From sequence record PV112478.1: a DNA stretch of 64,000 nt; one strand, 5' to 3'. The stretch's first letter is position 1. Each line of letters opens with the position of its first letter. Below the pieces are notes generated by a model, which worked only from the letters and a program-made list of their open reading frames with translations, was not told where the DNA came from and did not search any database. Both the position numbers and the translations under genes were made by a program. Of the stretch, positions 28,949 through 29,049 are shown piece after piece. Source of the stretch: Klebsiella phage LPKP23.

Positions 28949-29049
28949 TGGTTGTTCCCTTCCGGATTTGAACCGGCAACCTCCTGCTAAGCAGTGGGCG
29001 GCGCAGTGGCCGCCGATGCAGGCGCTCTACCTAGTTGAGCTACGAGAAC
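28949..29049 (-). tRNA. Atypical 101-nt tRNA-like gene (possible pseudo-tRNA or tRNA with insertion); anticodon unresolved
   Basis: Occupies a tRNA slot between Asp and Gly. Good acceptor 5' gttctcg, D-arm ta-gctc-aactaggta-gagc, T-arm gccgg-ttcaaat-ccgga and 3' ...acca. The middle instead holds a 6-bp GC hairpin ggcggc-cactgc-gccgcc inside a cctgc...gcagg closure, and no canonical 5-7-5 anticodon arm was found. Confidence 0.35.

Follow-up and report, generated by a model that had tools for sequence, protein, structure and literature searches.

The present analysis concerns an unusual transfer RNA (tRNA)-like gene, referred to here as E1, and its paralogue E2, both of which are located in a 64,000-nucleotide (nt) stretch of DNA from Klebsiella phage LPKP23 (sequence record PV112478.1); this stretch at its full length is called the window below. 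The phage is a Klebsiella jumbo phage of ~300 kb, its relatives have genomes of ~300 kb as well, and the closest GenBank record is that of Klebsiella phage vB_kp_MJ359, which shows 99.8% identity over the tRNA cluster. The annotation of the related phage FBKp24 (MW394391) lists a protein weakly similar to the phage nuclear-shell protein, a putative tubulin-like protein and several RNA polymerase beta-subunit genes, and due to these annotations the clade may be nucleus-forming. All tRNA genes in the region of E1 lie on the minus strand. E1 and E2 form part of an RNA-only operon on this strand that runs from ~30340 to a strong intrinsic terminator at 27648-27623, with a terminator-like hairpin (30372-30350) standing ahead of it. 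The order of genes in the operon is tRNA-Met, Leu, Arg, one small open reading frame (ORF), Tyr, Gln, Gly, E1, Asp, Asn, Ser, E2 and a structured non-coding block of ~550 nt. A preliminary description of E1, made from the DNA letters, had placed it in the tRNA slot between tRNA-Asp and tRNA-Gly, and ARAGORN indeed locates canonical genes for tRNA-Gly at 29058-29133 and for tRNA-Asp at 28866-28940 on its two sides.

E1 as a whole occupies positions 28949-29050 of the minus strand (102 nt including U-1), with U-1 at 29050, G+1 at 29049 and the 3' end at 28949. Reading from the 5' end, U-1 is followed by GUUCUCG (29043-29049), the two together constituting the acceptor 5' strand (29043-29050) that pairs with AGGGAAC-A at 28953-28960, then by UA and by a D arm of the form GCUC-AACUAGGUA-GAGC (29024-29040) with G18 and G19, which the covariance-model alignment places with high posterior probability. 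After a single G comes the anticodon-stem 5' strand CCUGC (29018-29022), whose partner GCAGG is found at 28983-28987. Between these two strands the 7-nt anticodon loop is replaced by a 30-nt module (28988-29017) consisting of AUC, an 18-nt GC hairpin GGCGGC-CACUGC-GCCGCC (28997-29014) and a single-stranded 3' segment, CACUGCUUA, in which a second copy of CACUGC is present (28991-28996). The anticodon-stem 3' strand is in turn followed by AGGUU, by the T arm GCCGG-UUCAAAU-CCGGA (28961-28977, as aligned by the covariance model), and by the acceptor 3' strand AGGGAAC, A73 and the encoded A-C-C-A end (28949-28960). The G7.A66 position of the acceptor stem is a mismatch in the window sequence. The acceptor strand, D arm, T arm and ACCA end noted in the preliminary description, as well as the hairpin, the duplicated CACUGC and the enclosing CCUGC/GCAGG pairing, are all present at these minus-strand coordinates, and it correctly says that a 5-7-5 anticodon arm is impossible to draw from the primary sequence, in which the 5-base-pair (bp) stem exists but the loop is 30 nt long. 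In the folded arm the 5-bp stem is separated from the 6-bp hairpin by a 3 x 9 internal loop, and the cloverleaf carrying this extended arm lies no more than 0.7 kcal/mol from the minimum-free-energy fold. The 18-nt hairpin occurs once in the window, where the chance expectation is 0 at up to 3 mismatches.

The relationship of E1 to tRNAs is clear from its match to the Rfam tRNA covariance model (RF00005), which scores 28953-29049 of the minus strand at 38.9 bits, above the curated gathering score of 29 (E-value 1.1e-4 for the whole window and 2.5e-7 locally), and E1 thus belongs to this structural family. The model aligns the acceptor, D, anticodon-stem and T regions at high posterior probability, leaving 28 nt as an anticodon-loop insertion; further, the generic tRNA model was the one retained for E1 in Rfam clan competition. 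ARAGORN in its default mode skips E1, and in its intron mode it returns a cloverleaf in which the acceptor stem has 8 bp and begins at U-1, the tail is A-CCA and the insert measures 23 nt. The earlier suggestion of a tRNA with a small insertion is thus right as a description, the insert being of 23-28 nt according to the two programs. After removal of its insert ARAGORN reads the loop as CUGCUUA, with U at position 37, and labels the gene 'tRNA-Ser(GCU)'. However, this label is not credible, because E1 has a variable loop of only 5 nt and a U37, and a proper class II tRNA-Ser(GCU) is already encoded by the phage. Due to the U37 of this loop, E1 without the 23-nt insert is no canonical decoder, and none of the eight possible 23-nt deletions yields a purine at position 37, which is taken by U or C or, for k=7, stands in a non-canonical context. 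The features of a canonical decoding tRNA, viz. a 7-nt loop with U33 and a purine at 37, together with detection and an isotype from a default finder, are in consequence not those of E1. Nor is its isotype consistent among the closest tRNA bodies, which are a mixture of Arg, Pro, Thr and Ile, the best match being tRNA-Arg(ACG) of phage DSS3_MAL1 (81.7%). The ARAGORN search for transfer-messenger RNA (tmRNA) was also negative, and the acceptor of E1 has U3-A70 as against the G3:U70 of tmRNA; similarly, E1 differs from tRNA-Sec in having a 5-nt variable loop and no UCA, while an 8-bp acceptor stem is possible.

The existence of E1 is confirmed, but the preliminary description overlooked both the paralogue E2 and a label already attached to the two genes in a public database. 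E2 (28326-28433, minus strand, 108 nt) is built on the same plan as E1 and likewise ends in A-ACCA. Its extended arm is made up of the stem CGGGC/GCCUG, a spacer AUU, the hairpin AGGC-CCCCUC-UCAUAC-GAGGGG-C-GCCU with the 6-nt loop UCAUAC, and a 10-nt 3' segment, UAACAUGGGA; the D and T arms are normal. The Rfam tRNA model matches E2 over 28330-28432 at 34.4 bits, again above the gathering score of 29, ARAGORN in intron mode assigns it an insert of 33 nt, and its minimum-free-energy fold (-39.1 kcal/mol) is the cloverleaf with the extended arm. The two genes share the leader CAAUG and the end CAACCA, and in each the arm is built from a stem of 5 bp, the spacer AUY, a GC hairpin capped by a loop of 6 nt and a 3' segment of 9-10 nt, while the sequences of their inserts are unrelated. 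The 3' segment of each gene echoes the core of its hairpin loop, so that E1 has two copies of CACUGC and E2 has two of CAU(G). The GenBank record of vB_kp_MJ359 (PQ182779) labels E1 and E2 'tRNA-OTHER', the second lying 0.6 kb downstream of the first, and in view of this the locus is uncharacterised rather than unseen. A 10-mer from the 3' segment of E2, CCUUAACAUG (28363-28372), recurs on the same strand at 27717-27726 within the large non-coding block; this recurrence is probably a coincidence, given that conservation of the block copy does not extend to FBKp24.

When E1, E2 and insert-free versions of both were used as BLAST queries against 50,697 phage records, the family was found in 12 records, all from a single Klebsiella jumbo-phage clade, and every one of the 12 carries both genes. 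Pattern scans of IMG/VR and metagenome contigs recovered only FBKp24 itself and one 10.5-kb IMG/VR contig (L026), with no more distant members, the other matches being chance coding matches, tRNA-Tyr genes with canonical introns in eukaryote viruses, and unrelated insertion-bearing tRNA-like sequences. The comparison between the window and FBKp24 provides a measure of the constraint on the two genes. As a neutral yardstick, 14 orthologous ORFs were compared (~6,400 sites per codon position; 6,401 third positions), and these differ at 11%, 6% and 46% of the first, second and third codon positions, respectively. Over the same evolutionary distance E1 differs at 1 of its 102 nt and E2 at 3 of its 108 nt; the 30-nt insert of E1 accounts for 1 of these differences and the 39-nt insert of E2 for 2, and the operon spacers, including the flanks of E2, cannot be aligned between the genomes. 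The two changes in the E2 insert, which replace U by C at the first loop position and A by G at the fifth, are mutually compensatory, and because of this the E2 loop is suggested to contain a seventh pair, a triloop CAU and one bulged pyrimidine; the third change converts a G.U pair of the anticodon stem into G-C. Since the analogous positions of E2 show a compensatory change, we infer that the first and fifth nucleotides of the E1 hairpin loop (C and G) could likewise form a seventh pair, leaving a triloop ACU and a bulged pyrimidine, which is C in the window and U in Centimanus.

Centimanus, the most divergent relative, shows 7 changed positions in E1, of which 5 restore or preserve structure: G7.A66 becomes G-C, G49.A65 becomes A-U, and U54/A58 of the T loop become A54/U58. 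The D arm of E1 is invariant across all relatives, and the 30-nt module shows just three variable positions, each of them unpaired; one variant has AACUGC in place of the second CACUGC (KpXa_1). Conservation of E1 among the relatives extends through the CCA, whereas that of E2 begins a few nucleotides before +1 (at UUCAAUG) and halts at the CCA, and these limits indicate that the selected unit is a tRNA-sized RNA with an encoded CCA. Within the operon, which was aligned across four genomes, canonical tRNAs have been lost repeatedly (most of tRNA-Gly in FBKp24, tRNA-Asp and tRNA-Ser in Centimanus, tRNA-Gln and tRNA-Tyr in KpLz-2_45), and despite these losses E1 and E2 are retained in 4/4 genomes. 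The comparison with related phages proposed in the preliminary description thus finds E1 in all four of these genomes and nearly invariant. It is clear from these results that E1 has a tRNA cloverleaf and a paralogue, that both its body and its insert are under purifying selection, and that it is retained in every relative examined; judged by the substitution patterns, this selection is shown to be strong for body and insert of both genes.

Based on these observations, E1 is most likely a functional tRNA-derived gene, which is neither a canonical decoder nor a decaying pseudogene. The reading which we prefer, holding it somewhat short of even confidence, is that E1, together with E2, is made as a stable, non-decoding RNA of tRNA shape. 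If this is the case, then the operon transcript would be cut by host RNase P and subsequently trimmed at its 3' end, and both steps should accept E1, as the enzymes concerned read only the acceptor/T-arm stack and the elbow. The product would be a stable RNA of ~102 nt with an encoded CCA end and probably an 8-bp acceptor stem (U-1:A73, then A-CCA), an arrangement for which cleavage would be expected to shift upstream by one nucleotide. Such a shift, together with an 8-bp stem, is seen in tRNA-His, according to what is established about RNase P and its response to RCCA. The D and T loops would build a normal L-shaped elbow, and the anticodon arm would be approximately doubled in length, the 5-bp stem being extended, beyond an asymmetric internal loop (3 x 9), by a GC helix of 6-7 bp that ends in a small loop. 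Such an RNA could not decode on the ribosome; it would be a tRNA mimic, in effect a natural 'tRNA scaffold', whose conserved extended arm would be its working end, for example in binding or sequestering a host or phage protein that recognises tRNAs.

Several points, however, weigh against this reading. The role as a decoy or adaptor, along with a binding partner for the arm, is purely what we infer, and the hairpin stems, due to their lack of variation, have no covariation support of their own. Other points of this kind are those which would suit an alternative, by our assessment unlikely but of real weight, in which E1 and E2 are intron-containing pre-tRNAs. According to it, a phage or host endonuclease excises 23 nt from E1 and 33 nt from E2, an RtcB-type ligase, again from the phage or the host, joins the halves, and the products decode, E2 as tRNA-Pro(UGG) and E1 with the anticodon GCU. 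ARAGORN in intron mode models both genes as intron-bearing, and E2 without its insert has a textbook anticodon loop, AUUGGGA (U33, UGG, G37), as expected of a spliced decoder; phage T4 presumably also supplies a tRNA-Pro(UGG), its record listing a tRNA-Pro without an anticodon. Further, when Centimanus is excluded, all 3 of the substitutions in E1 fall inside the 23-nt 'intron' of ARAGORN and 0 in the 79 nt of 'exon' (Fisher p ~0.01), which is an intron-like pattern. Some relatives also encode the tRNA splicing and repair enzymes RtcB and Tpt1, as exemplified by FBKp24, where a full-length RtcB (402 bits) and a Tpt1/KptA 2'-phosphotransferase (145 bits) are both confirmed by Pfam. Lastly, short and highly conserved 'enigmatic introns' have been reported in the tRNAs of Lak megaphages (bioRxiv 10.1101/356790).

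The structure of E1 and the distribution of the enzymes nevertheless speak against splicing. A bulge-helix-bulge is absent, since the opposite strand carries no second 3-nt bulge, and the insert lies elsewhere than at positions 37/38. The E1 product would have U37, and its GCU anticodon would duplicate that of the tRNA-Ser(GCU) of the phage. SerRS needs a long variable arm, and E1 does not have one. If the 5' exon includes AU, as E2 requires, then the would-be U33 of E1 is C in two relatives (FBKp24 and KpLz_1_41). The inserts are also about as conserved as the exons (95-97% identical, vs 46% silent divergence), which would be unusual for a discarded intron. In tblastn searches RtcB was matched only in FBKp24, KpSz_1, KpZh_1 and KpZh_LPS_45 (4 genomes, 5/12 clade records), and no RtcB was found in MJ359, KpLz-2_45, KpLz_1_41, KpXa_1, KpYy_2_45 and Centimanus, all of which keep E1 and E2. 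The enzyme is thus accessory within the clade, 7 of the 12 records carrying E1 and E2 being without a match, and the possibility that splicing depends upon a phage-encoded RtcB is weakened by this. No splicing endonuclease is listed among the FBKp24 annotations up to 300 kb, and the ORFs near E1 (19-51 kb) contain no RNA-repair or RNA-binding domains. In a more specific form of the alternative, the two RNAs would be substrates of a protein-catalysed tRNA splicing in the infected bacterium, in which an endonuclease reads the hairpin and spacer module rather than a bulge-helix-bulge and an RtcB-type ligase seals the halves. We know of no protein-only or endonuclease pathway for short tRNA introns in bacteria, and consider this specific form to be improbable; if true, it would be the first tRNA splicing system of the bacterial world other than group I, and the excised, sequence-constrained hairpin could itself act as a small RNA. 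A group I intron can be rejected, as the E1 insert of 23-30 nt is far too short and no Rfam intron family matches it at E-values up to 10. The 'WapA tRNA nuclease' note on gp056 of FBKp24 likewise finds no support in Pfam or PHROGs; the probable orthologue of gp056 in the window (39418-39765, minus strand) encodes 115 amino acids and has a C-terminal hydrophobic tail. An intron-like element and a tRNA-derived regulatory RNA were among the options of the preliminary description. Sequence alone does not settle between an insert that is removed, as an intron, and one that is kept in a non-decoding RNA derived from a tRNA; for E1, however, the evidence leans towards the insert being kept, since no 23-nt removal gives a purine at 37, the would-be U33 is C in two relatives, and the insert is strongly constrained.

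A second alternative, improbable in our estimate, is one in which E1 and E2 act only in cis, recruiting RNase P and 3' nucleases in order to set the ends of neighbouring RNAs, and have no function in trans. The CCA end of E2 abuts the conserved, structured 550-nt block in FBKp24 and Centimanus, and further degenerate tRNA-like pieces are found in the operon, e.g. the first ~76 nt of this block (14-15 bits with our own tRNA model), both of which would suit a processing module. However, in the window E2 is separated from the block by 155 nt, and E1 stands between two canonical tRNAs which need no added punctuation. Moreover, processing needs only the acceptor and T arms, and it would leave the near-invariance of the 30-39-nt inserts and the shared hairpin plan unexplained.

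The possibility that E1 is a dead tRNA gene, whose anticodon loop underwent a slippage duplication and whose remnant is drifting, is so improbable that it can be set aside for practical purposes: the 24 nt GGCGGCCACUGC-GCCGCCCACUGC do form an imperfect 12-nt tandem duplication (10/12 identical, GSCGSCCACUGC twice), phage tRNA clusters gain and lose genes, and weak degenerate tRNA-like matches occur in related operons, but the pseudo-tRNA proposed earlier is contradicted by the 1/102 differences against 46% at third positions, by the compensatory changes in Centimanus, by the keeping of E1 in all relatives while real tRNAs beside it are deleted, and by the same design with an unrelated insert in E2, and a very recent horizontal transfer of the operon is argued against by its fully diverged spacers. 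Other possibilities for the inserts were also rejected. A repeated mobile element does not account for the hairpins of E1 and E2, as both are unique in the window, and resemblances to a CRISPR repeat, an RNase P mini-substrate, a k-turn or a sarcin-ricin loop did not hold on inspection, the motifs either misfitting or not being conserved in the variants. No complementarity of at least 12 nt to the inserts, as expected for antisense targets, was found elsewhere in the window.

Some other features of the operon and its surroundings merit description. The non-coding block of ~550 nt (27615-28167, minus strand) is GC-rich, lies 3' of E2, ends at the operon terminator and is conserved in 4/4 aligned genomes. 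RNAalifold predicts 171 pairs for it, 16 of which show compensatory double changes among the 4 sequences, and a degenerate tRNA-like unit, with a T arm GCAGG-UUCGACU-CCUGC, makes up its first ~76 nt. There was no credible match among the Rfam families (the best, Pistol ribozyme, scoring 19.5 bits with E 0.68 against a gathering score of 34.5). The block is a candidate for a new large structured RNA that is transcribed together with the tRNAs. On either side of E2 lies a further non-coding segment, one of ~155 nt (28168-28325) and one of ~250 nt (28434-28686), both on the minus strand; the window and KpLz-2_45 have these segments, whereas in FBKp24 and Centimanus they are missing or different. 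In FBKp24 (L002, ~1879-1952; corresponding to 29058-29213 of the window) a deletion has produced a hybrid gene, which consists of tRNA-Gln in its 5' part and continues with the T arm and 3' end of tRNA-Gly. The hybrid carries the annotation tRNA-Gln, and its score with the Rfam tRNA model is only 26.5 bits, indicating a loss of tRNAs in this operon by recombination between adjacent tRNA genes. The genome of FBKp24 also carries, besides RtcB (174955-176199) and Tpt1/KptA (191106-191669), a macro domain (56891-57337) and an NAD+ salvage set of genes at 150591-153208 and 200300-202366.

Among known systems, the closest to E1 and E2 are the tRNA genes of Lak megaphages and other huge phages, in which Devoto et al. 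(bioRxiv 10.1101/356790) described highly conserved 'enigmatic introns', remarking that such tRNAs may be common in large phages. As in the case of E1 and E2, these are oversized tRNA genes of very large phages with short inserts that are not of group I and are near-identical between related phages; they are missed or called 'undetermined' by finders in bacterial mode, and no mechanism of removal is known for them, nor was a mechanism for such inserts found in the literature. E1 has the features of this kind of tRNA, viz. a genome larger than 200 kb and a near-invariant, non-group-I insert. However, the Lak inserts were placed by a eukaryote-mode tRNA scan that gave normal anticodons, whereas E1 yields no canonical loop, and unlike them E1 and E2 have a defined hairpin architecture in common, end in a shifted ACCA and come from a culturable enterobacterial host. 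E1 and E2 are thus members of a kind that has been noticed but not explained, and they are set apart within it by the position of the insert, the shared hairpin plan, the shifted CCA and the measured selection.

The remark of Devoto et al. is supported by the present scans, as insertion-bearing or non-canonical tRNA-like sequences were found in several other phages and contigs. One of these is an unannotated element of 117 nt in the crAss-like phage cr56_1 (NC_055890; L071:516-632, between a hypothetical gene and a DNA polymerase gene), to which the Rfam tRNA model gives 33.8 bits; its AU-rich insert of 56 nt contains three copies of UUCGUAU, and it shows G7.A66 and G49.A65 mismatches as in E1. 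Unannotated oversized tRNA-like elements are also located on the minus strand directly 3' of tRNA-Ser(GCU) in Erwinia phage phiEaH2 (L209:4222-4340) and Salmonella phage pSal-SNUABM-04 (L208:4700-4802), both enterobacterial jumbo phages in which the operon is syntenic with that of E1 and, in the Salmonella phage, an NMT1-like gene is nearby. Both elements are detected by ARAGORN in intron mode only; that of phiEaH2 has a long GC-rich hairpin at its centre, and the operon of pSal-SNUABM-04 contains a 650-nt gap with several more weak tRNA-like matches. In IMG/VR and metagenome contigs (L195, L199, L096, L102, L130 and L158) a tRNA recurs that has the anticodon UAU, a long variable arm with a conserved CCAGAUUAG and an encoded ACCA, and three tRNA-like sequences in IMG/VR contigs L124, L133 and L140, to which ARAGORN assigns no anticodon, have GAARRCGGGUGAUKCCG in place of the anticodon loop.

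The archaeal and eukaryal pre-tRNAs, which are spliced at a bulge-helix-bulge by EndA/TSEN and joined by RtcB or Trl1, resemble E1 in having a short anticodon-loop insert in an otherwise normal cloverleaf, and RtcB and Tpt1 are encoded by some of its relatives. However, E1 differs from them in lacking the bulge-helix-bulge, in having its insert near positions 31-34 rather than at 37/38, in its bacterial host, and in that no endonuclease is annotated in FBKp24 and RtcB is missing from most relatives. The group I introns of bacterial tRNAs (tRNA-Leu(UAA), tRNA-fMet and tRNA-Ile, among others) likewise interrupt the anticodon loop, but they exceed ~200 nt and contain a P1-P9 catalytic core, as against the 23-30 nt of the E1 insert.

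In its presumed non-decoding nature, E1 is comparable to the bacterial Y RNA YrlA (RF02553), which also has authentic D and T arms and an anticodon stem extended into a longer, protein-binding helix, and which also occurs in phages. However, YrlA is circularly permuted, its ends lying in the long helix and its acceptor being closed by a loop, whereas E1 has normal topology with free acceptor ends and a CCA; the RF02553 model scores E1 at only 22.5 bits (E 0.33, gathering score 69), with a match that spans E1 and tRNA-Gly. A YrlA-like element is found 4 kb from E1, at 33075-33202 on the minus strand. It is a circularly permuted tRNA-like sequence with a T arm, an acceptor-like stem closed by a 31-nt loop and a D arm, scoring 37.6 bits with Rfam YrlA (E 5.8e-7, below the gathering score of 69) and matching the Ro-binding stem poorly; no Ro60/TROVE protein was found among the scanned ORFs. 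The element overlaps an ARAGORN call of 'tRNA-Stop(tta)' at 33160-33243, and this suppressor-tRNA call, like that of the FBKp24 orthologue ('tRNA-Sup-TTA'), is probably a misreading. Species 1 and 2 of T4 (rnaC and rnaD) are also small stable RNAs at the end of a phage tRNA cluster, presumably co-processed with the tRNAs, rnaD having a CCA end and rnaC a T-arm-like hairpin; on direct comparison, however, these RNAs of 119-139 nt have other folds, no full cloverleaf and no sequence similarity to E1.

The engineered 'tRNA scaffold', in which Ponchon and Dardel reportedly swapped the anticodon loop for a cargo hairpin, has the same design as E1, the acceptor, D and T arms and the anticodon stem being kept and a foreign hairpin taking the place of the loop. 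In E. coli such scaffolds give rise to processed, nuclease-resistant RNA. The scaffold is an artificial tool and, thus, an analogy for the working of E1 rather than a member of its family. Large phages repeatedly carry oversized tRNA genes, which pipelines skip or call 'undetermined' and which may be spliced or may act as tRNA mimics. The two Klebsiella paralogues make this question tractable, because they can be compared with each other, phages carrying them have been deposited as isolates on K. pneumoniae, and the selection on the inserts is very strong; the relatives with and without RtcB constitute a natural experiment. Either outcome matters, as it would reveal a new route of splicing in bacteria or, in accordance with the reading preferred here, a natural counterpart of the tRNA scaffold, the latter bearing upon phage tRNAs as counter-measures to host defences that cleave tRNAs.

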